DNA of 64,000 bases from a virus (Duplodnaviria > Caudoviricetes). The position numbers were made by a program, and so were the translations under genes. The stretch lies in IMG/VR virus record IMGVR_UViG_3300029305_001452, positions 1 through 64,000 of that record. The stretch is one strand, 5' to 3'. The notes under the pieces were generated by a model. The model was not told the DNA's origin. It made no database searches and saw nothing but the letters and a program-made list of their open reading frames with translations. Positions 6,606-60,515 of this stretch are shown piece by piece; positions within the stretch are counted from its first letter, which is position 1, and every line of letters starts with the position of its first letter.

Positions 6606-6634
6606 ATTATAACACATTAATTTCGTATTGTCAA
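6606..6634 (-). promoter_or_regulatory. Consensus sigma-A promoter for the endonuclease gene
   Basis: TTGACA-17 nt-TATAAT on the minus strand. Confidence 0.85.
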
Positions 6635-6644
6635 GTGTTATTAA

Positions 6645-7794
6645 TTATTCTGCATCACCAGGAATAATGATGGAGAATAATCTCTTCTCTTTATCACAGT
6701 CGCTAATCTTCAACTAAAGTCGTTAATTTTAGCCAGCACCATTACGTGCATCTTATACTTTCATATAAGGCGAGACTATATCATCACCCAGTTAAACTGG
6801 GGCATACCACTTCGAGCCACTTAGCTCTACGGCTTACGCCTAGTCGTTGAACCTTTTCCTATTCGGAACTTGGCTGCTGATTACCCATTGTTTAAATGTT
6901 TAGGATTTAACCTTGCATCATCCAATTAATTTTTTATACTTTCGTAGCATTCGCACTTAAGCATTTTTCATCTTTATGCTGTAGCTTAATTGGCTTTAGG
7001 GGTTTCCAGCAATTCAATATGTTTATCAAAACAGCTTATGCTGCTAGGGATCTATATTTCAAATCTTGCTGTGCTTTCATAGAGAAGGGATGGGTGCCAT
7101 CGGTAGCAATGCTCCAGTCGAAGTCGGGGCTTAGCTTAGCGTTGTTGAAGATAACATAAGCGTAAACTAGGTTGGTCTGATCACAAACGTCACAACCTAG
7201 TACTTCCATAACGAACTTGCAGCCAACAGGGAAGTTCTTAGCAGAGTTGACAACCTCAACAGCGTTTTCGGTTTCATACTCATACATAACGAACATCTCG
7301 GTACCAACCTTTACATCGGTGGGTAGAGAAATAGTTCTATCAGCGATAGAGAAAGCTTCTGCGGTAGCAGCATCTTCCTTACCATACTTAACACCAAAGG
7401 TGCTATCGTCATTTAGAGCATAGATCTCCTTAGGAGCAGCAACGGGAGTGTGCTTTAGGTCATACTTGCCGCCCTCAGCAACGGTGAAGCTCTCCATAGC
7501 AGGAGCAACAATCTTAGAACCAGCAGAAGCAACCTTCTTCTCAGTACCTAGCTGAGTAGCCATTAGGTTCATGTCGAATAGAGCGTTCTCAGCAGAGAAT
7601 TCTGCAGACTTAGCTCTGTAGAAAGTAGCAATAGGAGTACCCATTGCGTCAACAGCATCAGTAGACTCAGAAGCACAGTTTAGAGAAGCGTTCTGGATCT
7701 GGTTGATGGAGAATAGAACGGAATCATCCTTCTGGGATAGAGCAACACCACGGACAATTCTATCAATAACAAAGTTGTTTAAATCGAAAGCCAT
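6645..7794 (-). CDS. Major tail tube protein (SPbeta YomU position), spliced join(7794..7062,6700..6645), 262 aa
   Basis: Follows head-tail genes; highly expressed codon pattern; removing the intron restores ..MKAQQD-Y-CDKEKRLFSIIIPGDAE*. Confidence 0.8.
6701..7061 (-). ncRNA. Group I intron (361 nt, no ORF) in tail tube gene
   Basis: Exon ends in U and intron ends in G; core elements in order: AAUUGCUGGAAA (P), AAUCAGCAG (Q), UUCAACGACUA (R), GAUAUAGUC (S); excision restores the frame. Confidence 0.92.
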
Positions 7795-7839
7795 AATAAT
7801 TTACCTCCATAAAATAATTTTTAAAATATTAAAAGAACA

Positions 7840-8571
7840 TTAAAGCTCCTTCATCCAATTCAATTCTGCCTTATTAATCTTCTTCATATCTATAGTGCCA
7901 GCATAACAAGCAGACAATAAATGATCTGCGTTATGTATCACCTGTAATCTTGCAACATCATTCATAAATTCTACATAGCCCATATTGAGCACATATTCCT
8001 TAGTATAACATTGCTTTACCTTAACAGATGATATTAACGGCAACAAAAAAGATTTAAAAGGTTTATCTTTATTTAATTTTAGTCTCATCCTATCATCTTC
8101 AATTAAAATCTTTTTAGTCATTTTATTAGCAGCCTTTTCAATTTTCGGTGTAATATTAAATGCCTTGCGAAGATAGGAAACAATTTTAAGATATATCATT
8201 TTGTCAATAAGAATTCCAGTTTCCTTATCTGCCAAAATAATTTCACCCTCAATATGTGGGTGATTAAATGGTTTTAATTTTGAAAAATCTAAATCTCCAA
8301 ATAGAAGATTAGTTCTATCTGGTGTTAATGTCTGTGAAAGCATTACAAAAAGTTCAAAATCATCCACTTCCATCCAGTCCAGGCCCATATCCCAAAGTTG
8401 AGATTTCATATCGCTAGGAATCGCAGTTATTGTATGAACAACAGAGAAGAAGTCACGTTCTCCAAATTCCGCTATTTTTCTTATAGTTGGTTGCAAGACC
8501 TTTATATTGTCATTAATAACAAAGTCATCACCAATATAAAGCTTTAAATCATCAACGTCTAAGTTTGTCAT
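7840..8571 (-). CDS. Conserved phage morphogenesis protein (YomV position)
   Basis: Synteny; IKVLQPTIRKI and YAGTIDMKKI segments. Confidence 0.55.
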   Translation of the reverse strand: MTNLDVDDLKLYIGDDFVINDNIKVLQPTIRKIAEFGERDFFSVVHTITAIPSDMKSQLWDMGLDWMEVDDFELFVMLSQTLTPDRTNLLFGDLDFSKLKPFNHPHIEGEIILADKETGILIDKMIYLKIVSYLRKAFNITPKIEKAANKMTKKILIEDDRMRLKLNKDKPFKSFLLPLISSVKVKQCYTKEYVLNMGYVEFMNDVARLQVIHNADHLLSACYAGTIDMKKINKAELNWMKEL

Positions 8572-9070
8572 TTGGATTATACATCCTTGCATTATTTAGC
8601 GCATTTGTTTTTGTGGCTTCAAACTTTAAAGTTCTACAATAATAGTCACCATCGATAGTGCTTTCCTTGTTATAAATTAAATGAAACTGTAATCCAAACA
8701 TATTCGTCCAGTTAAAAGTATCTCTAATTAAATATCCAAGTAGATCATGCCTATCAATACCATATTCGGTTTTCATATCACCTAAATGACAAATAACAGT
8801 AAATGTGAGATTTTGAATTTTCATAACCTCATTAAAACGATGATCTTCTATATCATCAACAGTCACACAAATAAAATTTCTAACTGTATCTTGAGTTTGT
8901 GGAATTCTAATAAATCCAAAAATGTTTCTGTCCAGAAATTCATCCGGGCTATCAATATCAATATCAGAATGCAACGCCTCTAGAATATCAGTGTCCTCTA
9001 TCAACTTTTGTTTAATCTGTCTTTTCATACTACAAATATCATCGTTAATGTTTTGAATATCTCGTATCAT
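8552..9070 (-). CDS. Putative tail completion/terminator protein
   Basis: Size and position upstream of tail tube; ICH..RHDLL motif. Confidence 0.55.
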   Translation of the reverse strand: MIRDIQNINDDICSMKRQIKQKLIEDTDILEALHSDIDIDSPDEFLDRNIFGFIRIPQTQDTVRNFICVTVDDIEDHRFNEVMKIQNLTFTVICHLGDMKTEYGIDRHDLLGYLIRDTFNWTNMFGLQFHLIYNKESTIDGDYYCRTLKFEATKTNALNNARMYNPNDKLRR

Positions 9071-22587: not shown

Positions 22588-23214
22588 TTAAAATAAAATA
22601 TCTAAATCATCAACAATTTCATCAACAATACCTAAACTTAACATTTCTTCAGTATAGATATACCAATCTTTCGTTGACATCTTTTTAAAGAGTTTCTGGT
22701 CAATCTTAGTTTTATTTAAAATAAAGTCTCTCATCTTATCAACAAGATACTTATAATTCTTCATTTGTTCAGTAGTTTGCTCAAAAGAACCACCAAGCTG
22801 ACCTGATCCAGAGTGAATTAGACACTCGGTATTAGGCAGTGCATATCTTTTATGTCCTGCCATTAGAATTAATCCGGCAGCAGAGTAGGCCCAACAAGCA
22901 TCAATAGTCCAAATAGGTGTCTTACTAATATTCATTAAGCCAATGAAAGCTAATGTAGAATCTAAATCTCCACCAGGAGAGTTAATAAAAATCTTAATTG
23001 GTTTACGTTCATCAACTGGAATATTTCTATCTTCCATATTGTAACGAAGAATCATCTTAGATAACTCAAACAATCCATCACCAATCTCGCCCTCAATCCA
23101 CAAAACTCTATCTTGCTCGTCTTTGTAATATGTTAGCAAGTCTGGATTAGGTAACTGTAAATTTTCAATTGGTTCTGGAATAGCCAACAACATTTTATTC
23201 ATATCAACATTCAT
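22588..23214 (-). CDS. clpP: ClpP-family protease
   Basis: INSPGG and catalytic S (AYSAA), H (LIH), D (KDWY); LGIVDEI. Confidence 0.9.
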   Translation of the reverse strand: MNVDMNKMLLAIPEPIENLQLPNPDLLTYYKDEQDRVLWIEGEIGDGLFELSKMILRYNMEDRNIPVDERKPIKIFINSPGGDLDSTLAFIGLMNISKTPIWTIDACWAYSAAGLILMAGHKRYALPNTECLIHSGSGQLGGSFEQTTEQMKNYKYLVDKMRDFILNKTKIDQKLFKKMSTKDWYIYTEEMLSLGIVDEIVDDLDILF

Positions 23215-23418
23215 ATTTTTTGTTCCTCACTTTCATGGGTATTTATATAAGTTTTATTTAATAAATAAGAAAAAGGACAGTGCAAAAGCACTATCCTTTA
23301 GTCTCTATCATTATATGAAAATTCAATGTCAAATTTTACAAATCCAAAAAGTCGTTGCGGCTCTAAGCGTTTTCGCATTAATTTTGTATTGTAACTTTTT
23401 AAGGCTGTGCTAACAAAA

Positions 23419-24300: not shown

Positions 24301-27300
24301 TCATTTCACCTCCAGCTCTAACACTTTTCATAGTAAATTTAAACCCGCCGTAACTAAATTCTCCATTTACATCTTGTTCGGGATAAGTATAACAACCAGA
24401 CTTTGCAATAAGTTTTTCCACAATCACATCTCCACATAAGTTCCATACAATACTAACATCGATACCATCTTTATAACAAATATCAAGCAGCATTTCACAT
24501 AAAATATATTTATTTTGACAAATTGAGAAACAAGTTTCCTCTAACTCTGCATTAAGTTTAACAATCTGATCAGCAGCGCTCTCTTCTTCATCTTCATGCT
24601 CTACGAATTTTTTCTTGTTAATCTCACGTTTCTTCTGTCTATACGCTTCACACTTAAGCTTTATAAGCTCATAATCCTCTTGTGCATACTCAAGACAACT
24701 TTTATAAATTTCATAGTCGAAATTAACATTTTCAAACATGTCAACACCGTCGAATACATCTTCAACGGCCCAACAAATACGATTCATAGTAGAGGGTGAG
24801 ACATCAAGAGGTAGGCGTTTTTTATAAAAATCCAAGATTTTTTGCTCATTTTCTGGCAAATTACCATCATTTTTAAGTAAATCTCGTATATTTTTACCAG
24901 TTATACTTTGAATATGATCATCTGTATCACGAACAAATGCATCGTATTCTTGCTTTAAAGTGGTGTAGTTATAGCCAAAAAAGTATGGTTTTTTGAATGC
25001 ACATAGCTGTTGATTTAGTGTTTTTTGTTCTATAATTTCAGCAGAATCGTCATTTCTTACTATATTTTCTTTAAAAATATACCAACTTTTAGGCATCGGG
25101 TTGGGTAAAATTCCCTTAGCTTTCCTTTATACCCTCGGTTTCCCGATATTTTAGTAGGGGAGTAGACTATATCTTCAACTCATAACGAGTTGTGTGGCAC
25201 TTCCAAATGAGGAGTTTCACCTCAAATGTACTTCCTTACGGAATAGTCGTTTGACGTTCTTGCTTACGCAAGCTTCGCACTGGATTAACATATGTGTGTT
25301 TATTTTATGGAACTTGTTTCCATCTTTTATAATTGCAAATATCATTAATGCATTGAGGAGTAACGTTATATTTTCTTGAAATTTCAGAATAGTTGAAACC
25401 ATCTCTATGTAATTTTCTAATTTCTACAACATCATCTACACAAAGCTTCTTAGGATTCTTCTCATAATATTTTTGTTGAGCCTGTTGTATGTTTTTACGA
25501 CCATCTTCACTCATTGGTGCATACTTCATTCCAGTATGAGTTTCGGACATCTTTGCTCTTGTCTCATCTGATGCTTTTCTTCCTATGCCGTTAATTCTAT
25601 TTTTCTCACCTATTTTTCTTTTTGTCTCATCGGATAAATGTTTTCCAAGGTTATATCCTTCATCTCCGCCGTCGTGAATATTATAAGCAAGTCCCATATC
25701 TTTATATAATTTAATATAATATTTTTCTCGATCACTTAATTCACCAACGCTGCAATCTTCAATAACTATAAACTCGAAATTTTCTTGTTTATATTTATCC
25801 CATGCACTTTGTAAATGCGGATTATCGTGTTTACCATTGTTTAATAAAGAACGATGCGAATCCCATCTATCTCCAAAATTCATTCCAGTTTTACCAACAT
25901 AAATTTTACCATTAACTAAATTTCTAATACCATAAATACCGATTCTAGAATAAATATTATCTTCACGTTTAACCATATTACTCCTCCTTTCTTAATTAAT
26001 TTTGTATTGTTAACACACACTTAGTTTTTCCCAGTTAGCTAACTCGTTAACACTCATTTCCTAATGCTACTTTACGTCGAGTTAACACCCTATATTTATA
26101 GGTTCACCACATTATTCGATGCATGTCACCATGCAAAGCGACTGTAATTCAATCGATTTCTTCCTGTTGAAGAGCTTGCCCGCACTGAGTTCTATATCTT
26201 AAAATCTCATATTCACGACTTCCTGGCTCATAATTTGACATTAAAGAAGTGATTGCTGTGATTCTGTTAGTTATACTACCAATCTTACTACCAAATCCAT
26301 TCTTATTTGCTTTAATTACATCTGCCTCAGTAACCACTTTCCTCGAAGCATTGTACTGAATGCAGTTTAGTGCAGGCAAATTCTTCTGGTTCTTAAGTAG
26401 TGGAGCGTTGTCAGTAGTGAAGAGTAGATCTCCGTCAAAATCAAAACCATTAAGAGCCATTGGCATTGTATCCCAAGCATTCACAACAGCCACTGTATCC
26501 ATATATTTAAACCAGTATTCTGCTTTATCATCATAGCAGATATCCTGAGAAACCAACGAATGTTCGTTAGACATTGGTGCTCTAGCACACATTACACGCT
26601 TCACACCACAATCTTTCCAGTATTTACTGTAAATTTCGCCAGCTTTTAGTAATCCATGCACCTCTAAACCAAACATACTCTCACATAGAGCATATATGTC
26701 TCCAGAAATAATTTGGAAGTTACCACTTACATCAAGCACACCAATCTTGGCCTCTCTAATACGTTTGTTAATCATTTTCTTAATTCTATTGCGAATATAT
26801 GGGTCATTTATAGTCTCTGAATTAGCCATAAGCGCTCTTGCAGCAGCATCCACATACTGAATATTCTCTGCTTTTAAGTTCTTACCACATAAATACACAA
26901 TACTTTTTCTAGGATCTAAGCCAATAGTATCCTTAATTTCATTCACAGTAGGAGAGATAAGCTCCTGAATATCTTCGTCAGACAAGTTTAAAGACTGTAT
27001 AAACTGGTAATTTAACTGTCTTACGGTATCAACTTCATGCGGTGCGGTCTTAGCAACTCTAATTGTATACTTATTTTCTAGACACTTATTATAATAATCT
27101 TCCCATGAATCATAACAAGCCCAAAGTTTCAACTGGCTCTCAGTAATAATTAGTTCGGAATCTCTAATATCTCTCTGTTGTCCCCAAATATCAGTAATTA
27201 AATACTTTTCAGGGCAATCATCGGAAGCACCAACAACTTCTTCTGCAAACTTTATGTAGTCAAAAGTAAATGTCATACCTTTAGTCCATGCACAACGAAG

Positions 27301-28122
27301 ATTACAACCGCTCATTGTATGCTCATAGTCATCATTGAGCTCACCATTCCATCTTCTGGATAAAGACGGTAACATCATAGAACAACCATCAGAACAATTA
27401 TTTTTAACTAATTGATTTTCTGCAAACTGAACAATTGGCTCTTTAGTTCTATCACTATCATCAATATTAATTAAATCAGCACTAAATTCTGTAAAGGCGT
27501 CTCTAATAACTATAACGCCACCAGGAATTGGTGCATATTTATCCTTCGGCCAACTAACCTCAAGTGAACCACTTGCGGCCAGCGCCTCATATGCACCTAG
27601 CTTCGCAGGCACTAACTTAACCTCGTTATTTTTACCATTCTCAATACGCTTCTTTAATTCAGGATGCAATCTCTCACTAACATACACAACAGTAGATGTC
27701 TTAACGCCGCCAGTTGTACATAATAATCTTAAATACCTAATTCCATTTACATAGAATCCTTGATTCGCACGGTCATAATCAGACTTCTTATCCATTATGA
27801 CACATAGATAATCCTCTTTAAACTGTAGTCTATATAACTGTTTGTACAAATTTGAGATTTTAGTTTTATTACTACGACTCACCGGCTGATTTTTAATCTC
27901 TTTAATCTGACGCTTAATTTCTTTTGCCTGAATATCATAGTCTTCAGTTCCGTTTAGCTCATTAATCCAAGATAGGATCTGAGAATCCGCTAGGGCAACG
28001 ACAAGCCCAGTTGTATTTCTAGCTCTGTTTAGCGGCAAAGTTAAATCCCAATTATTTTTACGCAATAGAGTAGAGTTAATCTTAAATACATATTGTTGTA
28101 ATTTCTTTTGCTTCGCCAACAA
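24293..28122 (-). CDS. yonO: YonO-type single-subunit double-psi-barrel RNA polymerase, spliced join(28122..26152,25123..24293), 933 aa
   Basis: SDGCS, K-x-M (TKGMT), RAP and catalytic NGFDFDGD; intron removal restores QQEEID-KAKG. Confidence 0.9.
25124..26151 (-). mobile_element. Group I intron (1028 nt) with embedded GIY-YIG endonuclease
   Basis: Exon ends in U and intron ends in G; P1 CGAU/GUCG with U-G pair; P AACUGGGAAA, Q AAUCCAGUG, R CAAACGACUA, S GAAGAUAUAGUC. Confidence 0.92.
25305..25976 (-). CDS. GIY-YIG homing endonuclease with NUMOD3 repeats and C-terminal HTH
   Basis: GIYGIRNLVNGKIYVG, R..H, RE.YYI, YN; HLSDETKRKI and ASDETRAKMS repeats. Confidence 0.93.
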   Translation of the reverse strand: MVKREDNIYSRIGIYGIRNLVNGKIYVGKTGMNFGDRWDSHRSLLNNGKHDNPHLQSAWDKYKQENFEFIVIEDCSVGELSDREKYYIKLYKDMGLAYNIHDGGDEGYNLGKHLSDETKRKIGEKNRINGIGRKASDETRAKMSETHTGMKYAPMSEDGRKNIQQAQQKYYEKNPKKLCVDDVVEIRKLHRDGFNYSEISRKYNVTPQCINDICNYKRWKQVP

Positions 28123-37862: not shown

Positions 37863-37988
37863 TGGTATTAAGTTTATACTAGTATAAAAATGATACTAGG
37901 GGTAGTATAAAAATGATACTAAAAATAGTATAAAAATGATACTACATAATATATAATAATATATAAATTAAAATATAAATATATATAA
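37863..37988. repeat. Palindromic iteron/operator array plus AT-rich tract
   Basis: TAGTATAAAAATGATACTA at 37880, 37903, 37926 (23-bp period), variant at 37863, then about 40 nt of almost pure A/T. Confidence 0.85.
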
Positions 37989-38026: not shown

Positions 38027-38374
38027 CTACGGATCGCTTGCTTCGCTACTTGGGTCTTTGTCTTGCTTCGCATCTTTGGACAATATCTTTTGGACATCAA
38101 CATAGATGTTGCCTTTTTCGTCTAGCTGGATATAACCCTTGTCCTCTAGTTGCTTGCGCACTTTATAATAATTATTTGGCTGGGATATCCCGGTCATTTT
38201 TTGCATATACGCTGTACTTGGGGAGAATGACCCATCGCCTTTACAACCTAGTAGAGTTAGGAGGACTTTTGCCTCGTTACCGCCTAATTGATTATTTATA
38301 GCCGAGAATAGATTGCTTGGGTATACCATAAAGCTTTTTGGTTTATCTTCTTTGTCATGGAAAACCTGGGGCAT
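38027..38374 (-). CDS. Winged-helix DNA-binding protein (replication-initiator-like N-terminal domain)
   Basis: L...EAKVLLTL..FSPS...M.KMTGIS..N.YKVRKQLEDKGYI. Confidence 0.65.
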   Translation of the reverse strand: MPQVFHDKEDKPKSFMVYPSNLFSAINNQLGGNEAKVLLTLLGCKGDGSFSPSTAYMQKMTGISQPNNYYKVRKQLEDKGYIQLDEKGNIYVDVQKILSKDAKQDKDPSSEASDP

Positions 38375-38409
38375 TTGAATCCTCCTTTCATTAATTTTGT
38401 GTCGCTTGG

Positions 38410-38438: not shown

Positions 38439-39037
38439 GAGGGGTGATTTATTGTGTCACTTTTGACTTTTTTTGGTTGAAAGCACCCCCTGGGCGGTAC
38501 ATTTAATAAGGGTTTGCTTTTGGGTTTTATGGTTTGGTTATTTAGGATGGGTTTATTTACCTACTAACCTAGTAGGTTAATAGGATGATATTAGATTTGC
38601 CTATTGGTTTGGTAGGCAATTGTTGGTGGTTTTATGGTTTGATTGTAAATGTTTACGGTTTTTGGAGGGTTTTTATATGGATTTTTAGGGCTTTATATTT
38701 TAATAAGGTATTGTTTGGAATTAACCGATGGTTTTGGAGTTTTATGAAGATAGGTTGTTTTATTAAGGTATTGTTTGGAAATTGGGGAGTTTGGGGATTT
38801 GGTGGTGGTTTTGATGGGTATTTAGTTGGATTTTTATTTATGTTTTAATTGTGGGGAAGTGCCGGTGTTTTGGGTGAAACTTTGTTTTTGCAGTCAGTGT
38901 GGAAATATACCACATGTGGGGAAATTCACGAAAAACACAAGATATTGTGGTTTTAAGTACCCCCATGGCACAAAATATTGGGATCAAATCAAAACTTTGC
39001 AAAATATGTATTTTCAAAAGTTTTTAGAAATTTGGTG

Positions 39038-39065
39038 TTGACTTTGAGGATTTTTTTGTTATTGT
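39038..39065 (+). promoter_or_regulatory. Candidate rightward early promoter
   Basis: TTGACT-16 nt-TATTGT with TGn, upstream of the first plus-strand gene. Confidence 0.4.
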
Positions 39066-39145
39066 CAAATCACACCAAAGGCAAAAAGGTCTTTGGTGAA
39101 TAAATATCACGCCGTGTACACACACGAGCATATGGAGGTAATCGT

Positions 39146-39574
39146 ATGAAAACTAACACTATGGACGCACGCATCAAGGAACTGATGGCTATGGGAGCTA
39201 CTTTCGCAGAGGCACACAAAGCCGCATTGGACGAGGCTGTTGCCTTCGGCAACGGCAAGGGCAAGAAGCCGACTGGCAAGGCTGCACCGGAACTCGTAGA
39301 GTTCCGCAAGAAGAACGGCGAAGTCAAGATGGTCAGCCCTAAGCAAGCAGCCGTGTGGGAAGCTGCACGCAACCGTAGCAACGGCAAGACTCTTGACGAA
39401 GTCAAGGCTGAATGGGAGGCTAAGCACAAGGCTTTCAAGCCTAGCAAGGAGCTGATTGCAGCCCTTAAGGCGAACCCGATCATGACTCGCAAAGAGGCTA
39501 AAGCCTACGGCTTTATCGGCACTAAGGACGAGTTCAAGGCTCTGAAAATCAAGCACAACGTGTACGCTAAGTAA
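39146..39574 (+). CDS. Lys/Ala-rich basic protein, first rightward gene
   Basis: GGAGG RBS; strongly biased GC-rich codons; followed by a terminator. Confidence 0.8.
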   Translation: MKTNTMDARIKELMAMGATFAEAHKAALDEAVAFGNGKGKKPTGKAAPELVEFRKKNGEVKMVSPKQAAVWEAARNRSNGKTLDEVKAEWEAKHKAFKPSKELIAALKANPIMTRKEAKAYGFIGTKDEFKALKIKHNVYAK

Positions 39575-39587
39575 CACCTAACCACCT

Positions 39588-39625
39588 ATACCCCTCACCC
39601 CTCGTGGGTGGGGGGTATTTTTTTT
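39588..39625 (+). terminator. Intrinsic terminator
   Basis: ATACCCCTCACCC/GGGTGGGGGGTAT hairpin plus T8. Confidence 0.8.
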
Positions 39626-39714
39626 GCGAACGGGTAATCCCCACAAACCACACTCACCCACACACATACACACATAGACCGTCACCTATAGGATCCACGA
39701 AAGGAGTAACCACA

Positions 39715-39801
39715 ATGCTAGACACCGTAATCATCATAACCTGCACACTCATAACTCTCGGTACTTACATCTACCTGAAAGCCACCAAGGTTATTTGGTG
39801 A
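39715..39801 (+). CDS. 28-aa single-helix membrane peptide
   Basis: AAGGAG RBS; MLDTVIIITCTLITLGTYIYLKATKVIW. Confidence 0.55.
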   Translation: MLDTVIIITCTLITLGTYIYLKATKVIW

Positions 39802-39902
39802 GCATACAGACCAAGCCCTTGAGCCACCACGGTTCGAGGGTTTTACTGTGTGCTTACACACATATCTTACGGCTGACGAGCCTTAAACGTAGGAGGGATC
39901 CA

Positions 39903-40205
39903 ATGAACGAAAACACCAACTTCAAGACCATGCTCGCTATGATGTGGGATATGCAAAATCCCATCATCACAGTAGAGTTCTTGAGTGAGAAACTGCACTA
40001 TGACGAATACTTTACAACCCATCACATCATCGTCCCCGACGGCAAGGACAAGGTGATAGACTTCTGTTTTGTAGAGGGTAGGCACACCACCAACAACTAT
40101 CTGTACTATACAAAATCCGTAGACATCACACTCGATGAGGCTTTGGTTCGTTATAGCAAAGAGGTGATGAGAGGACAAGCAAAACTTACCCTTTACGGTT
40201 GCTAA
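39903..40205 (+). CDS. Hypothetical early protein
   Basis: AGGAGG RBS before MNENT. Confidence 0.65.
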   Translation: MNENTNFKTMLAMMWDMQNPIITVEFLSEKLHYDEYFTTHHIIVPDGKDKVIDFCFVEGRHTTNNYLYYTKSVDITLDEALVRYSKEVMRGQAKLTLYGC

Positions 40206-40295
40206 GCATAGAGCCAGCGGACATCACTTCGGTGGTGTCCGTCACTGTGTGCTTAACAAAAACTATACTCGCACACGAACAAGGAGGAATTAACC

Positions 40296-40607
40296 ATGAG
40301 TAAACAATCAAGAGCAAAATCAAGAGCAAGACGCAAGGCTAGAGGTACTGGCTCAGCAGCAGCAGCCATGTACATCAGCAATCTGAACCGTATGTCTGAT
40401 GCCAACCACTACTTAGCCAAGGAAGCACTCCTTGACGAACTACACACAGTCCTTTGTGACCGTAGAGTATTCAAGGACAACAAGTTCATGAATATGTTCC
40501 GTGATAACTTCTGGGGTTCTCTTGAGCGTGAGATTGCTATGCACCACAGCAGCAGCCCTAAGCGCATCAAAGCCCTTGAGTTGATTGCACGAATCAGAAT
40601 GTTCTGA
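40296..40607 (+). CDS. Basic hypothetical early protein
   Basis: AAGGAGG RBS; Arg-rich N-terminus. Confidence 0.7.
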   Translation: MSKQSRAKSRARRKARGTGSAAAAMYISNLNRMSDANHYLAKEALLDELHTVLCDRRVFKDNKFMNMFRDNFWGSLEREIAMHHSSSPKRIKALELIARIRMF

Positions 40608-40615
40608 CCACAATA

Positions 40616-40648
40616 AGCCACTATCTACCACGGGTAGTGGCTATTTTT
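40616..40648 (+). terminator. Intrinsic terminator-like hairpin
   Basis: AGCCACTATCT-ACCAC-GGGTAGTGGCT plus T5. Confidence 0.65.
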
Positions 40649-40670
40649 ATGTCTGTTAGGAGGAGTAACT

Positions 40671-40982
40671 ATGTACACTTATCTCGTTGTTTTCGATTGC
40701 TTGGTGATGGCTGAGCCTTTCTTTCAGCACATCAAAGCCGACAGTCTTTCCGAATGTTGGGACAAAGCCTACAAGATGTCCCTTGAAATGCGTGAGTTGT
40801 CTGATGGCAACTTTGAGATTTATCGCCTTATGACCGATGAGGACTATTGTGCTGAGATGCCAGTTAGCAACGATGCACAATGTGATTGTCCCCTTGGCGG
40901 TGACATCACAAACGACTGTGATGGTTGTGCTTATGCTTGTGACTATCACTTTGTTGATGGCGAATGTGTCCGTAGACATTGA
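40671..40982 (+). CDS. Cys-rich hypothetical protein
   Basis: AGGAGG RBS; C.CPLGGD..NDCDGCAY..DYHF.DGEC. Confidence 0.65.
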   Translation: MYTYLVVFDCLVMAEPFFQHIKADSLSECWDKAYKMSLEMRELSDGNFEIYRLMTDEDYCAEMPVSNDAQCDCPLGGDITNDCDGCAYACDYHFVDGECVRRH

Positions 40983-41084
40983 TAGGAGGTGATACAGTAT
41001 GATGCACCATATTCACCACAACTCTTACCGTGTGTCTATATGGCACTTTATCAAATATGTCGTCAACACGAGGAGGCAACAACA

Positions 41085-41279
41085 ATGACAGCTATCCTAT
41101 ATGTGAAAAGACCATTTTGTGAGGTCTTTGACGAAGTCACGAGGGGTCGTGGCTTCAATAATATCCAAGATGCTATCAACCATGCTTGTGACAGTAAACT
41201 CACCAATACTCGATGCGTTTACAAGATCACTATGGCTGAGAGTGGAGCGTCAAAAGTCTTTACGAAGAGTAGGAGGTAA
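41085..41279 (+). CDS. Hypothetical protein
   Basis: GAGGAGG RBS before MTAIL. Confidence 0.55.
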   Translation: MTAILYVKRPFCEVFDEVTRGRGFNNIQDAINHACDSKLTNTRCVYKITMAESGASKVFTKSRR

Positions 41280-41284
41280 CAACA

Positions 41285-41665
41285 ATGACAGTATTTGACC
41301 GTATCAAGATCATGCCCAAGGACGAACTCCAGAAGTTCATCTACTACATCTACCTTTGTGGACACCTCAATGAACAATGTGATGTGGACGATGAGGTGTA
41401 CTACAAGCATGTACTCGATTGTCCTAGTGATGACATCGACAGCCTTATCACTTGGTTTGAAACCCTTGAGCCTGTGAAACTCCACCTCATTCCTCGTGAT
41501 GGTGGTGATCCGTACTACATCGACACCAAGTTCTACTCATTCGATGATGCCGCATCCTACATCAACAAGTATTATCGCTTTGTGACGAGGCTTGCTAATG
41601 GCAAATACACTACAAGTGCAGGAATATTCACCATTGTTCCTTGTAGTTGTAAATTAGCACCATGA
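41285..41665 (+). CDS. Hypothetical protein
   Basis: AGGAGG RBS. Confidence 0.65.
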   Translation: MTVFDRIKIMPKDELQKFIYYIYLCGHLNEQCDVDDEVYYKHVLDCPSDDIDSLITWFETLEPVKLHLIPRDGGDPYYIDTKFYSFDDAASYINKYYRFVTRLANGKYTTSAGIFTIVPCSCKLAP

Positions 41666-41840
41666 GAGGAGGTGATACCAATGTTCAGACATGAAGGCAC
41701 GATGTGTTGTTCCACTTGCTTTGAGGAGATGCACACACTCCTTACAGACAACCAAGGAAACCCCATAGCGTACATCTGCACCAACTGTGGTAAGCTAACC
41801 GATTTAACTGACGAACTGTAACAGAAAGGAAACACAAACT

Positions 41841-42170
41841 ATGAAAATCGTAAAACTGTATGACACCGTCTATGACATTCGTACCTTATACCGTAAGGCA
41901 AATACACCTGCACAGAGAGCTTTGGTAGGCTATATCATCAAGGCAGGTATGACACAAGACACCATTTTCGGTGGAGCATTTCAGCTACTGTGTGATGTGG
42001 AGCGTTGCATGAGTAATGAAACCATCTACACCATTCACAGTTATGTGGATCGTGAAACGGAAAACAAGATTTCCTATGTGGCACAGCTGGCACTCGATGG
42101 TAAGTTTGATGCCTTTACACTTCGTAAGGCAGATATGGATGCCATCGTAAGAAACTTGGCTGATTTCTAA
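41841..42170 (+). CDS. Hypothetical protein
   Basis: AAAGGA RBS. Confidence 0.65.
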   Translation: MKIVKLYDTVYDIRTLYRKANTPAQRALVGYIIKAGMTQDTIFGGAFQLLCDVERCMSNETIYTIHSYVDRETENKISYVAQLALDGKFDAFTLRKADMDAIVRNLADF

Positions 42171-42189
42171 GCGAAAGGAGGGAAATGAA

Positions 42190-42390
42190 ATGTTTGAAGA
42201 ACCTAGCTATAACCCCAGGTGGAACGGAAATGCAAAGAAGTACCTCGAAGCGAAATTGAGAATCCTTACAGACAAGCGAGGTTTCGATATTACTCCAACC
42301 AGAACGGAAATGGAGCATCTGAAAACTCTTAAAACACAAACGCAAATCGATAATGCAATCCTCAGCATCATCGATAGAAGATGGGGGTAA
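42190..42390 (+). CDS. Hypothetical protein
   Basis: AAGGAGG RBS. Confidence 0.6.
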   Translation: MFEEPSYNPRWNGNAKKYLEAKLRILTDKRGFDITPTRTEMEHLKTLKTQTQIDNAILSIIDRRWG

Positions 42391-42395
42391 GGGAA

Positions 42396-42596
42396 ATGCA
42401 AACTGTCGTCTTAATAATTGCCGTGCAAATTATCCTATTCGTCCTGTATGTCCTCATCTGTGGAGCAATTTACCTTTGGCAAGAGATTTGTGCCGACATC
42501 AAAAAGGCAAAGCGTCGTTTACGGCAAGGCATATGGGATCTCGAATGGGAATGGAAACTTTGGAAGAAAGGAGCGATTGAATGGATTACAAAATAG
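42396..42596 (+). CDS. Small membrane protein
   Basis: N-terminal hydrophobic helix. Confidence 0.55.
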   Translation: MQTVVLIIAVQIILFVLYVLICGAIYLWQEICADIKKAKRRLRQGIWDLEWEWKLWKKGAIEWITK

Positions 42597-42715
42597 TCAA
42601 TGTCCGTGGTCATTATGAGGCATATGTCAACGGAAACTTCATATGCTCTGGTGACACTTGGAGCGAAGCCGTAAGGGAGGTTGAAGCATATCTATACGAA
42701 GGGAGATGAACGAAT

Positions 42716-43078
42716 ATGCTTTACAAAGTACGATTCGAGCTAATGGAAATGGTGCAACTTGTATGTGCTGTCAAGTATGCACTTGGTAAGGAACATGACC
42801 ACTTTCTCCAAATCTATGAGTGGAATGTCAAGGGAATTGAGGCACTCAGAAATGTAAGGGAAAAGATCCTTGCAGGTATGCATAACAACTGTGAGGTTGA
42901 ACTTGACCTAATGGAAATCGTGCAACTGTACTCAGCTTGTAGTATGGCTTGGCATCACGAAAAGGACGAAATGGAAAGACAACATACTGAGTGCAGACTT
43001 GAACAATATGCTCGTGCCATAAGCGAACTTGAAATGGCAAGAGAAAAGATACTTGCAGCTATGAAAGGAGCAAGGTAA
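42716..43078 (+). CDS. Two-repeat helical hypothetical protein
   Basis: Internal duplication LMEMVQL..REKILAGM / LMEIVQL..REKILAAM. Confidence 0.65.
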   Translation: MLYKVRFELMEMVQLVCAVKYALGKEHDHFLQIYEWNVKGIEALRNVREKILAGMHNNCEVELDLMEIVQLYSACSMAWHHEKDEMERQHTECRLEQYARAISELEMAREKILAAMKGAR

Positions 43079-43267
43079 ATGATTAGACTTAAGATTGTGT
43101 GTCAAGGCAAAACACTTCTCACAACCTCTTGGCGTCACACACCGAGAATTGGTGAACTAATCCGTATGAACGGAGAACTGTACCTCATAACGGAAATTAT
43201 CCACGATGTTGACATGATGCAGTCCAACCGTGTATATGACATCATTGTTGAGGTGGAAAGGAGATAA
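43079..43267 (+). CDS. Hypothetical protein
   Basis: PRIGE.I....Y.I..I.H pattern. Confidence 0.6.
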   Translation: MIRLKIVCQGKTLLTTSWRHTPRIGELIRMNGELYLITEIIHDVDMMQSNRVYDIIVEVERR

Positions 43268-43272
43268 GGCAA

Positions 43273-43509
43273 ATGAGTAAGTTGTACCCCATCGTTAAGG
43301 AAGCAAAAACAATGTGTGGTTACAAACTACCAGATGACTACAATGGACCAAGGCAAACACTATACTACTGTCCTGTATGCAACCGAAGATTGTCTTGTCA
43401 CAAGGTAGATTATAACGATACCTTGGTGATTCTTCACAACCGTCAACTGAAACCTATTTACTGTCAAGGTTGTGGAAGCTTAATACATCCATTACCTAGA
43501 AAGGAGTAA
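43273..43509 (+). CDS. Zn-ribbon protein
   Basis: CPVC..YCQGCG. Confidence 0.6.
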   Translation: MSKLYPIVKEAKTMCGYKLPDDYNGPRQTLYYCPVCNRRLSCHKVDYNDTLVILHNRQLKPIYCQGCGSLIHPLPRKE

Positions 43510-43718
43510 TGGAAATGGCACTACTGAAAGAGGGAAGTTGCCTCCATCTAGTCAACGACTTTATCTGCACCGAAGGCAAACATCAAAACTACCCTTGTCC
43601 ATACAGAAACGATATCCACAACTGTATATGCTCAATCAAGGTCACAAAGGAAATGGTTGAGCAACTCAAAGAAACCGGATGCGTAAGCATTACTTACGAA
43701 AGGTGGCAAGGCAAATGA
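43509..43718 (+). CDS. Hypothetical protein
   Basis: AAGGAG RBS; coupled. Confidence 0.55.
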   Translation: MEMALLKEGSCLHLVNDFICTEGKHQNYPCPYRNDIHNCICSIKVTKEMVEQLKETGCVSITYERWQGK

Positions 43719-44047
43719 CAAAAAATGAAGCCGAAAAAATTCTCACATATGTTGCAAAAAACATTATTTCTCCACTCGCATTTGACGAAACACCTGCAAG
43801 AGAAGTTTGGTTAAGGTTAAGCGGAGATGACTTTAGTAAGCTATGCAAATTCGTACATGGCATGGTGGAAACAAAAACACGAAAGTTCTTCGACATCGAA
43901 ATAAGGGAAATCATCACCGAGGATGTGCTGAGTGATACACTCGAAGAACTTAAGGAGTGTGATCCTGACACATACGGAGATATCACCCTTGGACAGTATA
44001 TCAACAACTGTCTGACTATCAACAACGGAACTTTAGAGGAGGTATAA
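43715..44047 (+). CDS. Hypothetical protein
   Basis: ATGA overlap with the previous gene. Confidence 0.6.
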   Translation: MTKNEAEKILTYVAKNIISPLAFDETPAREVWLRLSGDDFSKLCKFVHGMVETKTRKFFDIEIREIITEDVLSDTLEELKECDPDTYGDITLGQYINNCLTINNGTLEEV

Positions 44048-44052
44048 GGCAA

Positions 44053-44331
44053 ATGGCAAGATATATCAAATGTGACAACTGTGGTAAAAAAATAAAATTC
44101 GGAGATGTTGCGCTTACGAAAGATTACGATGGTGTATATTGCTCTGATGAGTGTTTTGCAGATGTTTTTTCAAGTGCATTTACTGTAAGCAAAGACTCTG
44201 TGTATGATTTGGATTGCAAAGTCTACGATGACGATGCAAGAAAGGAGGAGATTAAAAGGGAAATGGAAGAACACAAGCAAGCCATAGGAAAATTGCTGAA
44301 AGAGTTTGAACTCTTAACAGCACAAAATTAA
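44053..44331 (+). CDS. Zn-finger protein
   Basis: CDNC..YCSDEC. Confidence 0.6.
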   Translation: MARYIKCDNCGKKIKFGDVALTKDYDGVYCSDECFADVFSSAFTVSKDSVYDLDCKVYDDDARKEEIKREMEEHKQAIGKLLKEFELLTAQN

Positions 44332-44345
44332 CGGAGGTAGTACAA

Positions 44346-45239
44346 ATGGCAACTGTAAAATGCAATCCAAATAACTCGTGTGTTGACTGTAAAAACAACG
44401 GTGTAAACATCAAGATCACAAACAAGTGCAATTGCAACTGTGATTTTTGTGTCGAAAAGGGAGGCTTGGTAACGGAAGAGAAATCCGTTGAAACTCTAAT
44501 TGCAGCAACAAATATGCTCGATTATGACAATGTTCTTATCCTTGGTGGTGAGCCGTTGATGTATGAGCATCTCGAAGAGTACCTAAGTGGTATCACAAAT
44601 AAGAAAATTTATCTCACCACAAACGGAACTATGCTGACAGACGAGATGGCAGAAATGCTTTCCAAGCACCTAACGGCAATCAATATCTCAATGCACCATT
44701 TCACCGAAGAAGCGAACCGACAAGTGTATAAGAATGACAAGTATACATTCCAGAATATTATGTCTGCAATAAGGGTTTTCAATCAACATAATATTCCAGT
44801 TCGTATAAATGCAAACTTGGTCAAGGGAATTTTAGACACCAAGAAAGCAGTTAAGCGAATGATTTATTTTGCACAATTTATGGGTGCAAACTCCATCCGA
44901 TTTGCAGAGTTGCAAAATTGTGAGGAGTTATGGGTTGACTCTTCCAATCTCTTTAAGGATCTTCCCGAGAACCCATATGTTGACGGATGTGAAAAGGTTG
45001 TTTATGAAGAAGATGGCTTCAAGGCAACTGTAAAAATGACCTGTGGATTTGTTAATGCACTCAAAGAAAAACCCAACGACCCTACTCGTAAGCAAACAGA
45101 ACGGAAAGTTATTTATCCAGACGGTGAGGTGCTGAATGGATGGTATAACATTCGTGATGGAGTTGCAATATACCACGGCAAAACACAGCCTACAAGAACT
45201 GTGTATGAGTATGTTAATAGTGTTCAAAGTTGTTATTAA
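44346..45239 (+). CDS. Radical SAM enzyme
   Basis: CNCNCDFC (CxxxCxxC), GGEP, TTNG, INIS motifs. Confidence 0.9.
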   Translation: MATVKCNPNNSCVDCKNNGVNIKITNKCNCNCDFCVEKGGLVTEEKSVETLIAATNMLDYDNVLILGGEPLMYEHLEEYLSGITNKKIYLTTNGTMLTDEMAEMLSKHLTAINISMHHFTEEANRQVYKNDKYTFQNIMSAIRVFNQHNIPVRINANLVKGILDTKKAVKRMIYFAQFMGANSIRFAELQNCEELWVDSSNLFKDLPENPYVDGCEKVVYEEDGFKATVKMTCGFVNALKEKPNDPTRKQTERKVIYPDGEVLNGWYNIRDGVAIYHGKTQPTRTVYEYVNSVQSCY

Positions 45240-45315
45240 GGAGGTGTGACCAATGTATCATACACAAGGCAAATCAACAGTACAAAATTAATAAGCGAAA
45301 GGAAGATGATTTATT

Positions 45316-47915: not shown

Positions 47916-48248
47916 ATGCCTTATAAAAGCGAAAAGATAAAGCTTGACCCAAGCCAAGATCGTCGTAGAAAGCTGACGGAAGAACAGAAAAAAGAAATCC
48001 GTAGGATTTACAAAACGGGTGTATGTGGCACAAGACCGTTAGCAAAGCAGTTTGGTGTGAGTCGTTCAACTATTCAAGTAATTGTCAACCCAAGTATAGC
48101 CGAAAGGCATAAGAAAAGAATGAAAGAGCATTGGAGGGATTATAAGCCGTCAAAAGAAGAGTGGGCAGCCACAATGAGAGAGCATCGTCACTATAAGCAA
48201 GAACTATATCTCAAGGGAGAACTTAACACTAATAATACGGAGGATTAA
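47916..48248 (+). CDS. HTH DNA-binding protein
   Basis: KLTEEQKKEIR..LAKQFGVSRSTIQ. Confidence 0.75.
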   Translation: MPYKSEKIKLDPSQDRRRKLTEEQKKEIRRIYKTGVCGTRPLAKQFGVSRSTIQVIVNPSIAERHKKRMKEHWRDYKPSKEEWAATMREHRHYKQELYLKGELNTNNTED

Positions 48249-50793: not shown

Positions 50794-50826
50794 ACAATAC
50801 AAAATTAATAATTGGAGGTATGTGTT

Positions 50827-58208: not shown

Positions 58209-58400
58209 ATGAACGAAAAAGAAGTTGTTAAACAACTTAAGGATTTAATCGCAGAAAAGGAAGATTTATTAGAGGGAGATGAGTTGGACGAATTTTATAA
58301 AGACGATATAGAAATTCTAAAAAATGCACTCAAGCTTATTGAGGAGCTTTCTGTAGGTAGAGTGCAGTACAACAACACAAAATTAATGAAAGGAAAGTGA
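58209..58400 (+). CDS. Hypothetical protein
   Basis: GGAGG RBS. Confidence 0.55.
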   Translation: MNEKEVVKQLKDLIAEKEDLLEGDELDEFYKDDIEILKNALKLIEELSVGRVQYNNTKLMKGK

Positions 58401-58405: not shown

Positions 58406-59089
58406 ATGTCAAAAAAGAACAACAAAGAGTTTAAAATGGATCGTCAAGAGTATATTGACTTCTTAGCTAATAAGACAAACGAAATTAGTATGTCAAACAA
58501 TAATAGTAAAACAGGAAAAGCGTGTTTGAATCTTGCATTTCCTCTATGTACATGTAGAGCAGATGCACCTTGTAAAAAAGATTGCTATGCCGGAAAGGGA
58601 TGTCAGCAAATGGCAAGGGTGCAAGGAGCATATTACAGAAATTTAAGACTGTATTATGAAGACCCAGATAATTTCTTTGAACAGATCTATTGCAAGATAA
58701 AGTTCTCTGGGCTTCCTAAGGTAAGATGGTTTGATAGTGGTGATATAGCCGATGCAGAGTTTTTTGATAGAATGATTGATTTGTGTAATAAAACTCCAAA
58801 TGTAAAGCATATGGCATTCACTAAAAAATATGATATTGTAAACGAATACATTGACAAAAATGGAGATTTGCCAGATAATCTTAATGTATTGTTCTCTGCA
58901 TGGGATAGACTTTGGGAAGTTCCTAATCCTCATGGGTTAGGTGTTGCATATATAGACTTCGATGATAAGAGATTAAATCCTGATTTTCCTAAAAATGCAT
59001 TTAGATGTCCTGGAAGAGAAAGTACTTGCTCAGCATGTAGTGTGTGTTGGTCTAAGAAGCTTAAGGCCGTTGTGTTTAATCAACATTAA
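58406..59089 (+). CDS. GP88-like Cys-rich (Fe-S) protein
   Basis: NSKTG, TC....PC...CYA, RWFDSGD, FTK, CP......CSAC..CW. Confidence 0.7.
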   Translation: MSKKNNKEFKMDRQEYIDFLANKTNEISMSNNNSKTGKACLNLAFPLCTCRADAPCKKDCYAGKGCQQMARVQGAYYRNLRLYYEDPDNFFEQIYCKIKFSGLPKVRWFDSGDIADAEFFDRMIDLCNKTPNVKHMAFTKKYDIVNEYIDKNGDLPDNLNVLFSAWDRLWEVPNPHGLGVAYIDFDDKRLNPDFPKNAFRCPGRESTCSACSVCWSKKLKAVVFNQH

Positions 59090-59121
59090 CAATACAAAAT
59101 TAATTTAAGGAGGTAAATAAT

Positions 59122-59560: not shown

Positions 59561-59561
59561 G

Positions 59562-59939
59562 ATGAATTGGAAAGTATTTAAAAGAGACGATCCTAGCACA
59601 CATCCAGAAATTAATTGTCCTATGCTTTTATGTAAACACTACACAAGCACAATGACATTAGCGGTCCATTATTTCGACAAGGAACATAATAAATTTTACG
59701 AAAATGACGGTGGAAGTTCCAGATGGTATAAGGCTTATGATGAATGTTACTATTCTTATATCGGTTATATTCCTAATGGATATAAGGTTCATAAACTTAT
59801 TCGTTGTTTAAATGATGATAATTGTAAAATTGGATGTGCGGATGATGGTTATTGTATGTATAATTTCTGTGAGTGTGAACAACAAGTTGTGGTCAATGAG
59901 TATGAAATAGAAACTAAGCGTATTTGGGAAGAGTTTTGA
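59562..59939 (+). CDS. Hypothetical protein
   Basis: AAGGAG RBS. Confidence 0.6.
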   Translation: MNWKVFKRDDPSTHPEINCPMLLCKHYTSTMTLAVHYFDKEHNKFYENDGGSSRWYKAYDECYYSYIGYIPNGYKVHKLIRCLNDDNCKIGCADDGYCMYNFCECEQQVVVNEYEIETKRIWEEF

Positions 59940-59954
59940 AAGGAGTTAATAATT

Positions 59955-60479
59955 ATGAAAACAAAAATTGGTTATAAACTTTTTGAACAAGACACACAGG
60001 GGAATCTTTATCCCCTGTTCTTGGATAATAATACGATTTATCCTATTGGAGAATGGATTAAGGCAGAAATTCATTATTCTAATAAGTTTGCACCACGTCC
60101 AGGTCTTCATATTGGAGTAATTCCGGCAGCTCCATGGCTCATGTCTTATGGAGAAGACGGAAATGGATATTATAAAGGTAGACGAAAAGGATGGCGTCGT
60201 GTTTGGGCTGAAGTAGAATACAATTATACCGTTGATTATAATGAAGAGGTATCTAAGTTGCCCAAAAAGTGTTTTACAGACAGGGTTCCAGAAAACGGCT
60301 GGTATTTCTTTAAAGAGTTCGGAAAGGCAACCTGGATCATTACCGATAAAATTAAAATTAGAAGAGTAATTAGTGAAGAAGAAAGACAGGAGGTATTAAG
60401 ATGGGTACAATACGATGAAAAGAAAGAGTGGATTCCTTATAAGCATGCGCTCGAAAAACGCAAAGGAATTGCTGTGTAA
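59955..60479 (+). CDS. Conserved hypothetical phage protein
   Basis: GYKLF..LYPLF..GEW..AE..RPGLH...P.AP..RVWAEVE. Confidence 0.7.
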   Translation: MKTKIGYKLFEQDTQGNLYPLFLDNNTIYPIGEWIKAEIHYSNKFAPRPGLHIGVIPAAPWLMSYGEDGNGYYKGRRKGWRRVWAEVEYNYTVDYNEEVSKLPKKCFTDRVPENGWYFFKEFGKATWIITDKIKIRRVISEEERQEVLRWVQYDEKKEWIPYKHALEKRKGIAV

Positions 60480-60486
60480 AACATGG

Positions 60487-60515
60487 TTGACAACACAAAA
60501 TTAATATGATATAAT
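60487..60515 (+). promoter_or_regulatory. Consensus sigma-A promoter with the 16-bp phage motif in its spacer
   Basis: TTGACA-17 nt-TATAAT with TGn. Confidence 0.85.

Follow-up and report, generated by a model that had tools for sequence, protein, structure and literature searches.

The closest described counterparts of the element analysed here are the boxes of the Bacillus phages SPbeta (SPBRE) and phi3T (Phi3TRE), both bound by the master repressor MrpR, also known as YopR or SroF (Kohm 2023, PMC10516654; Chmielowska 2025, bioRxiv 10.1101/2025.11.27.690993; an earlier reference on the SPbeta system is Lazarevic 1999, as cited in PMC10516654). SPBRE was shown to be the MrpR operator by chromatin affinity purification with sequencing (ChAP-seq), electrophoretic mobility shift assays (EMSA), isothermal titration calorimetry and reporters, being bound in vivo and in vitro, and MrpR has a tyrosine-recombinase fold without recombinase activity (PMC10516654). 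SroF acts as a monomer that closes around the DNA and reads 24/26 bp of its non-palindromic box (bioRxiv 10.1101/2025.11.27.690993). Here we compare with these systems a repeated box of the virus record IMGVR_UViG_3300029305_001452 (Duplodnaviria; Caudoviricetes). The window, 64,000 nucleotides long, is the first 64 kb of this single 139,972-bp IMG/VR record, which is estimated to be 87% complete. The 16-base repeat is a genuine, functional motif that a whole family of phages has conserved, and we judge it quite probable that the box, as predicted from its sequence and placement, is an SPBRE-type operator, and probably also a stoperator, of an MrpR/SroF-type repressor.

The SPBRE was recovered from the regions upstream of ten MrpR ChAP-seq target genes of SPbeta (NC_001884) as (TAGAC)AAATACAAA[AT]AATATGTATATAAT, which lies within the MrpR-binding oligonucleotide of PMC10516654. 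SPbeta carries 12 strong copies, 12/12 co-oriented with genes. At yonP, yorE, yorM, yorZ and yosX the SPBRE forms TAGACA-17-TATAAT, with ACA as −35 positions 4–6, and at yopV, yopM and yonX it lies just past the −10 and abuts the ribosome-binding site (RBS). The 13 boxes of phi3T are likewise all co-oriented with transcription and lie just upstream of the −35, just past the −10, or right before an RBS without an obvious promoter.

In the window of the present phage, the pattern ACARYACAAAATTAAT gave 8 exact matches against 0 expected from 100 shuffles, and 18 matches at two or fewer mismatches against 1.05 expected and a shuffle maximum of 4. Two of these 18 (35884+ and 49616+) were chance-like, lying antisense to or within an open reading frame (ORF). 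A 20-bp position weight matrix (PWM; consensus TTAACAATACAAAATTAATG) was then scanned over the whole 139,972-bp genome at a threshold of 12 bits, below which 35884+ fell and which 49616+ just passed with 12.1 bits. The scan returned 35 strong sites at 17–30 bits, set apart from a chance-level tail at 12–14 bits; shuffled genomes held 0–7 sites of at least 12 bits. The box family is, by a wide margin, the most over-represented 12-mer family of the genome.

Nine of the strong sites lie on the minus strand (6.6–38.4 kb) and 26 on the plus strand (44.3–116.4 kb), and the PWM scan found none from 119.8 to 140 kb, where the tail and late genes run leftward. Genes run leftward up to ~38.45 kb and then rightward to 119.7 kb, and because the strands of the sites flip where the genes do, 35/35 strong boxes are co-oriented with local transcription. 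Composition bias as the source of the strand rule was rejected, the sites being intergenic and nearly invariant. The original prediction had listed 14 copies of a non-palindromic motif whose orientation follows the genes and flips near 39 kb. All 14 are present on the strands given, with none expected by chance; random orientation was not seen anywhere in the genome, and no conserved inverted half-site was found in the ~20-bp box. The list itself had overlooked a copy with one mismatch at 30069 and a weak one at 60766. The copies in the window are as follows.

6616–6631, minus strand: box in the −35/spacer of a sigma-A promoter, TTGACAATACGAAATTAATGTGTTATAAT, that is perfect; the HNH homing endonuclease gene 5315–6490 lies downstream; 24.4 bits
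13233–13248, minus strand: variant box ACAGTACAAAACGAAT, 6 nt past the stop of a 536-aa late gene, followed by a hairpin; 24.3 bits
20239–20254, minus strand: box after the exonuclease gene, in the weaker promoter TTTACA-16-TAAAAT, upstream of a 71-aa ORF and the terminase/portal genes
23377–23392, minus strand: box lying 26 nt beyond the final gene of the RNA polymerase operon and ahead of the strong terminator 23272–23299
25995–26010, minus strand: promoter-less box 6 nt before the RBS of the GIY-YIG endonuclease gene, within the intervening sequence of the RNA polymerase gene
30069–30084, minus strand: box with 1 mismatch that abuts the RBS of an 86-aa ORF, with the weak promoter TTTATA-17-TATAAT 31 nt upstream; 24.9 bits
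37295–37310, minus strand: promoter-less box that overlaps the stop codon of the preceding ORF and ends 12 nt before the next RBS
37809–37824, minus strand: box that begins 4 nt past the −10 of the perfect promoter TTGACA-17-TATAAT (−35 at 37857) and covers the predicted start site
38390–38405, minus strand: box that begins 4 nt past the −10, at a perfect promoter whose −35 is at 38438; the HTH_36 gene 38027–38374 follows downstream
44317–44332, plus strand: promoter-less box whose TAA is the stop of the upstream ORF and which abuts the RBS of the radical SAM gene 44346–45239
45277–45292, plus strand: promoter-less box preceding a 524-aa ORF
50794–50809, plus strand: promoter-less box that begins right after the stop codon of the preceding gene and ends 3 nt before the next RBS
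58372–58387, plus strand: promoter-less box preceding the GP88-family gene 58406–59089
59089–59104, plus strand: promoter-less box that overlaps the stop codon of the preceding gene and ends 3 nt before the next RBS
60490–60505, plus strand: box in the −35/spacer of the perfect promoter TTGACAACACAAAATTAATATGATATAAT, which heads an operon of small genes, an integrase-like gene and the repressor gene
60766–60781, plus strand: weak, doubtful copy AAAGCACAATATTAAT preceding a 138-aa ORF; 12.9 bits

The likeness to the SPbeta boxes extends to sequence and position. The cores are ACAATACAAAATTAAT here and ACAAATACAAATAATAT in SPbeta, with ACAA(A)TACAAA..TAAT in common; the spacer register is TTGACA-17-TATAAT here and TAGACA-17-TATAAT in SPbeta, with ACA at −35 positions 4–6 in both; and other boxes lie just past a −10 or abut an RBS. 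As in SPbeta and phi3T, a long, asymmetric, A/T-rich box is scattered in many copies over a genome of ~130–140 kb, all copies being co-oriented with transcription. In contrast, the box sequence itself differs from theirs and is shorter (~20 bp versus 24–26 bp), and the copies are about threefold more numerous (35 versus 12–13).

Sigma-A promoters were scored genome-wide as at least 11 of 12 matches to TTGACA-16/18-TATAAT, and 16 of the resulting 20 near-consensus promoters bear a box. Four of them (6616, 60490, 94156 and 111888) hold it in one exact register, filling the spacer so that its opening ACA provides the final three bases of the −35; the first two, both TTGACA-17-TATAAT promoters, are the copies from which a DNA-level site had originally been argued, an argument that holds in view of this −35/spacer register. 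At the other 12 promoters (boxes 37809, 38390, 64072, 68983, 74829, 80962, 81365, 81768, 84485, 87422, 103700 and 109595), the box begins 1–18 nt past the −10, over or close after the start site, in agreement with the earlier remark on 37809 and 38390, each of which starts 4 nt after a perfect −10. Box 99510 has the same layout at a promoter that matches at 10/12. The four box-free promoters comprise two that are antisense to local genes, one inside an ORF and the repressor gene's own (62659), the sole convincing gene-oriented near-consensus promoter without a box. Genes downstream of box-bearing promoters include replication and nucleotide-metabolism genes.

The putative reader of the box is encoded at the right end of the window, in the operon that begins at the box-bearing promoter at 60487.

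61667–62641, plus strand: tyrosine recombinase gene (YopP/SroD-like); Pfam Phage_integrase, E 7.5e-40, also found by tblastn with SPbeta YopP
62659–62688, plus strand: repressor gene promoter TTGACA-18-TAAAAT, box-free, with the palindrome ACAAACACATGTTTGT in its spacer
62717–63634, plus strand: gene for an MrpR/SroF/YopR-like integrase-fold repressor (305 aa), the proposed box binder

The 62717–63634 protein matched Pfam PF22822 (MrpR_N_CB) with E 8e-14 and 52.5 bits against a cut-off of 27, SPbeta YopR with a BLASTP E of 1e-10, and the phi3T SroF structure PDB 9rd5 with a phmmer E of 7.8e-13 over residues 2–275 of 305. That 9rd5 is phi3T SroF was established by a comparison of phi3T_97 with the alignment printed for this entry. 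The MrpR/YopR structures 8a0a and 8bj6 were also matched by phmmer, and a full-length alignment was made. SPbeta YopR itself gave no tblastn match in this genome, so that the homology was seen only via Pfam, BLASTP and phmmer; among the tblastn queries (SPbeta YopR, YopQ, AimR, YosL, YonN, YonK, YonR, YopS, YopO, YopN, YopP and YonO), only YopP, YonO and a weak AimR fragment (E 6e-4) matched. No Phage_integrase match at E ≤ 0.01 was obtained for the repressor, compared with 136.9 bits for its neighbour, in a comparison at the level of Pfam.

The tyrosine recombinase gene directly upstream of the repressor gene reproduces the order of the SPbeta sro operon, and in both phages the promoter of the operon carries a box (the yopM/sroA SPBRE in SPbeta). 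Unlike in SPbeta and phi3T, the repressor gene here has a box-free promoter of its own, and no homologue of YopQ/SroE, AimR or Sar was recognised. The palindrome ACAAACACATGTTTGT in the spacer of this promoter (62662–62677) is kept in the relative loci L006 and L007 and is imperfect in the relative G002. As a candidate operator, it might serve a second regulator acting on the lysis–lysogeny switch. Just after the repressor gene lies a gene for an 88-aa protein (63696–63962) that is conserved in relatives; the model of the protein (predicted local distance difference test score, pLDDT, 93) showed a helix and a beta-sandwich with weak matches only, to PH-like and YojF-like folds. A large serine recombinase is encoded at 117615–119600, which makes a temperate lifestyle plausible.

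The box would have as its binder a presumably catalytically dead, integrase-fold master lysogeny repressor of the MrpR/SroF/YopR family, one monomer of which would clamp one asymmetric ~20-bp copy of TTAACAATACAAAATTAATG, to judge from the phi3T SroF–DNA complex. EMSA had been proposed for this protein and for the products of 38027 and 47916, and the MrpR/SroF homologue is the likely binder among the three. The other two both have helix-turn-helix (HTH) domains, and a factor seated over all early promoters could equally shut off early genes, so that either protein (38027–38374 or 47916–48248) might bind the box as an early-to-late switch and not as a lysogeny repressor. Small HTH proteins, however, usually bind palindromes as dimers, a nearly invariant asymmetric box of ~20 bp suits the monomeric SroF clamp, and the likeness to SPBRE in sequence and position favours the MrpR homologue; both HTH proteins are disfavoured, and another phage protein as the reader seems highly improbable, the least probable of the readings weighed here.

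With the MrpR/SroF-type protein as the reader, the repressor would occupy a strong host sigma-A promoter at 17 boxes, covering either the −35/spacer or the start site 1–18 nt past the −10. Such occupation would block initiation and shut down practically all strong lytic promoters of the prophage, leaving only the repressor gene with a free promoter of its own. This reading would extend SroF/MrpR repression beyond the Bacillus arbitrium phages to a family of 130–170-kb phages from gut metagenomes; the box, the gene for the repressor and the regulon, predicted in full, are supplied here. The twist is that half of the sites are promoter-less.

No recognisable promoter was found within 70 nt of 16–18 boxes. 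These boxes begin at or overlap the upstream stop codon and end 0–12 nt before the next Shine-Dalgarno sequence, as at the junctions 25995, 37295, 44317, 50794, 59089, 70022, 89894, 90765, 112252 and 116384; that copies lie shortly before an RBS had been pointed out before, and it is true of most boxes outside the promoters. Box 93674 lies within an ORF, and 13233 and 23377 are followed by hairpins or terminators, not by a gene start. The promoter-less boxes were also considered as sigma-A promoters in their own right, and this was rejected because no −10 fits between box and RBS.

The same placement could suggest that the box acts in RNA, as a processing site in 5′ untranslated or intercistronic regions, as an enhancer of translation or as the target of a regulator that binds RNA. 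The box is always on the transcribed strand and usually 0–12 nt ahead of the Shine-Dalgarno sequence, it frequently shares bases with the stop codon of the preceding gene, and some copies stand ahead of terminator hairpins. Yet 4–5 copies occupy the −35/spacer of promoters at one exact register, which would be meaningless for RNA, no Rfam family matched at the boxes, and adjacency to the RBS is a trivial outcome of very short intergenic spacers. The homologous boxes of SPbeta and phi3T, moreover, are proven DNA operators (PMC10516654; bioRxiv 10.1101/2025.11.27.690993). We regard an RNA element as very improbable.

The nearest functional precedent for sites of this kind at DNA level is mycobacteriophage L5, whose monomeric repressor gp71 has more than 20 asymmetric 13-bp sites, operators in promoters and stoperators in short intergenic spaces (McGinnis et al. 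2022, PMC9283540; an earlier stoperator reference is Brown et al. 1997, as cited in PMC9283540). The L5 sites are oriented with transcription, and reversal of a site abolishes repression (PMC9283540). The stoperator layout of L5 was found here as well, in that the 16–18 promoter-less boxes are all co-oriented and many lie over the upstream stop codon; asymmetric sites in promoters and short intergenic spaces, tied to the direction of transcription, are shared, as is the monomeric reader predicted here. The likeness is one of function and not of family membership: the L5 repressor combines an HTH and a stoperator domain, in contrast to the integrase fold here, the L5 site is 13 bp long and G/C-rich, L5 has no phage RNA polymerase, and the roadblock activity is experimental in L5 and inferred here. 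Phage P1 offers a further comparison, its C1 protein being a monomeric repressor with scattered asymmetric 17-bp operators. P1 thus resembles the present phage in having many asymmetric operators spread over a large temperate phage genome and read by a monomeric repressor, and differs in that the proteins are unrelated and the P1 operators lie essentially all at promoters.

By analogy with L5, the promoter-less 16–18 boxes would most likely be orientation-dependent roadblocks to read-through. In a lysogen they would keep read-through transcription off lytic genes, among them the intron endonuclease genes and exon 2 of the RNA polymerase gene. Such a role would explain why every box points with transcription. 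More boldly, the integrase-fold repressor of this phage family may have become a genome-wide polar roadblock independently of the L5 repressor, its promoter-less boxes halting read-through only where they point the way the polymerase travels; the one reversed box, seen in the repressor promoter of some relatives, would then be deliberately non-blocking or autoregulatory. This we hold to be somewhat less than an even bet. With 35 co-oriented boxes, half of them promoter-less, the layout suits a test of whether SroF-type repressors block elongation directionally in the manner of L5 repressors. The relatives described below add to it a repressor promoter with the box reversed and a variant from which the repressor gene is naturally deleted.

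The exact 16-mer is present in many large IMG/VR contigs. In 122 relative loci, we counted 212 distinct sites, of which 26 lie in spacers, 44 after a −10, 83 before an RBS and 59 elsewhere; judged by their flanking ORFs, 179 point with the genes, 15 point against them and 18 are ambiguous. Orthologous promoter-less boxes retain their variant bases despite differing flanks (for example, 64333 compared with L006 and L007), and the late-region boxes equivalent to 23377, 20239 and 13233 are conserved in position (23377 in L114, L121 and L065), with L122 carrying a perfect box at the place of the variant 13233.

Further relatives were gathered via the polymerase and not via the box, and they fall into two groups. 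In group 1, the polymerase is 91–95% identical, and in the two genomes checked (G001 and G002) the repressor is 53% identical and the same box occurs in 33–42 copies. In group 2, the polymerase is 67–70% identical, the repressor is ~43% identical in the four genomes with a repressor gene found, and the box is ACAATACAAAATTAT[TA], in 23–33 copies per genome among the five scanned, G004 being one of these. Thus, relatives with a repressor 53–89% identical have the same box, and those at 43% identity have ACAATACAAAATTAT[TA].

The repressor gene's own promoter in group 2 has a reversed box in its spacer, TTGACAggGATAATTTTGTACTGTaCAATAT (G005 and G006, loci L176:1430–1470 and L177). This reversed box occurs in G005, G006 and G008, with a remnant in G004, and most other boxes of these four genomes run in single-strand blocks, a statement about strands and not about local gene direction. 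A reversed box in the repressor promoter is the layout expected for autoregulation.

The near-complete group 2 genome G004 (IMGVR_UViG_3300045988_123494) has lost the repressor gene through a clean ~1.26-kb deletion at ~122690–122738, with flanks 94% identical to G006. D29 is a natural repressor-deleted derivative of L5 that keeps its sites. The retention of sites in a repressor-deleted derivative is thus a further likeness to L5, and G004 might stand to its relatives as D29 does to L5, as a derivative turned virulent.

Searches beyond these relatives returned little. Megablast with 7 kb around the polymerase gene against the phage collection gave only a 50-nt terminase-related match to Enterococcus phages, and the repressor query found nothing in bacterial genomes. 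The portal query found one contig only, binned in a Kiritimatiellae metagenome-assembled genome from roe deer rectum; it may be a mis-binned phage.

The ORF 26149–28122 encodes a YonO-type RNA polymerase that shares 25% identity with SPbeta YonO and 39% with proteins of Enterocloster phages and of Clostridium phage c-st; these identities therefore indicate a distant SPbeta-like phage. Unlike SPbeta and phi3T, the present phage comes from gut metagenomes, and its polymerase has its nearest counterparts in Enterocloster and Clostridium phages and not in phages of Bacillus. The original prediction had proposed the box as a recognition element for this polymerase or for a phage-wide regulator, and the evidence favours the second part, the likely regulator being the MrpR/SroF homologue at 62717.

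According to the first part, the box would be the promoter of the YonO-type single-subunit polymerase, with transcripts starting in or just after it and carrying short leaders before the RBS. Strict co-orientation and high conservation are as in phage polymerase promoters, promoter-less copies stand right before RBSs, including that of the intron endonuclease gene, the copies 23377 and 20239 lie close to the head of the late region, and the YonO promoter sequence is still undefined (PMC5467207). In SPbeta, however, the activity of YonO is confined to the late operon, which it reads from a single start site lying between yonN and yonK (PMC5467207). The primers used for its primer extension could be placed at ~60330–60573 of the SPbeta record, one exactly and the other by eye with a one-base difference, and the interval that they bracket contains no SPBRE. 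The SPBRE of SPbeta is a repressor site, and the genes under its control are not YonO-dependent.

The distribution of the boxes in the present genome also argues against a polymerase promoter. Just 4/35 lie in the late region, and the late block at 119.8–140 kb has none; 31/35 lie in early and middle regions, and 17 stand on strong host promoters in fixed registers suited to occlusion. Box 23377 is separated from the late genes by the strong terminator 23299–23272, although YonO-type enzymes may ignore hairpin terminators. Beyond the terminator lies a distinct block, TTATTAAATAAAAC (23251–23264, minus strand), which is unique in the genome and kept in relatives ~40 nt ahead of the late genes, the first of which encodes the head protease (22588–23214). 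This block, within 23215–23299, is a candidate late (YonO-type) promoter or leader, only a lead but a better place to look than the box. The Enterocloster phage PMBT24, with a 39%-identical polymerase, has no detectable repressor homologue and no comparable motif. Its only repeated 20-mer, TTCAATTCGTAAAGTAAAAT, occurs in five exact copies and one with 1 mismatch, often right before terminator hairpins (loci L147–L151); it was rejected as a counterpart, being unrelated to the box and absent here. On this evidence a polymerase promoter appears improbable, and a tempting, probably wrong candidate for the YonO-type promoter is removed in favour of the late-operon block.

Both homing endonuclease genes have one copy upstream, as had been noticed before: the GIY-YIG gene 25305–25976 in the intron of the RNA polymerase gene, with its copy inside the intron, and the HNH gene 5315–6490. 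A group I intron (RF00028, Rfam, 74.9 bits) at 6752–7071 on the minus strand adjoins the HNH gene, and both genes appear to be intron-associated. The analogy drawn to T4 intron endonucleases with a late promoter was probably the wrong mechanism, because the polymerase-promoter option is unsupported; the boxes more likely silence the endonuclease genes in the lysogen.

Several points weigh against the box being an SPBRE-type operator of the MrpR/SroF-type repressor. The repressor homologue is just 20–23% identical to the characterised proteins. Promoter-less boxes make up about half of the copies here, compared with about none in SPbeta and 3–4/13 in phi3T, which makes a second function possible. 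Co-variation cannot separate repressor from polymerase as the reader, because the box diverges in parallel with both, a pattern that equally counts for the polymerase. No Sar/YopT-like antirepressor was recognised beside the repressor gene: the 88-aa neighbour had no BLASTP similarity to phi3T_99 or YopT, and no Sar/YopT appeared among the listed Foldseek matches of its model against PDB. This is weak negative evidence, since known Sar proteins share less than 20% identity. The window contains no Bacillus-type LexA box (GAAC-N4-GTTC), a consensus that may not be that of the host. Finally, G004 still has 23 boxes without a repressor gene, which also speaks for the polymerase; this fits a recent deletion and would equally fit a repressor-independent role. 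In a bolder version of the polar-roadblock reading, the same box may, after induction, also be read by the phage polymerase or a partner factor, and such dual reading would explain why the repressor-deleted relative kept all its boxes.

Two further features of the window adjoin the point at which gene direction flips. The rightward stretch 38450–44300 has a higher G+C content (0.42–0.45), no boxes and no good sigma-A promoter, and it contains strong terminators at 39588–39618 and 40616–40642. Between the two leftward early promoters, adjoining the HTH_36 gene, three tandem copies of the inverted repeat TAGTATAAAAATGATACTA lie 23–24 bp apart at 37880–37945; this iteron-like array is a candidate origin or operator of the HTH_36 protein.

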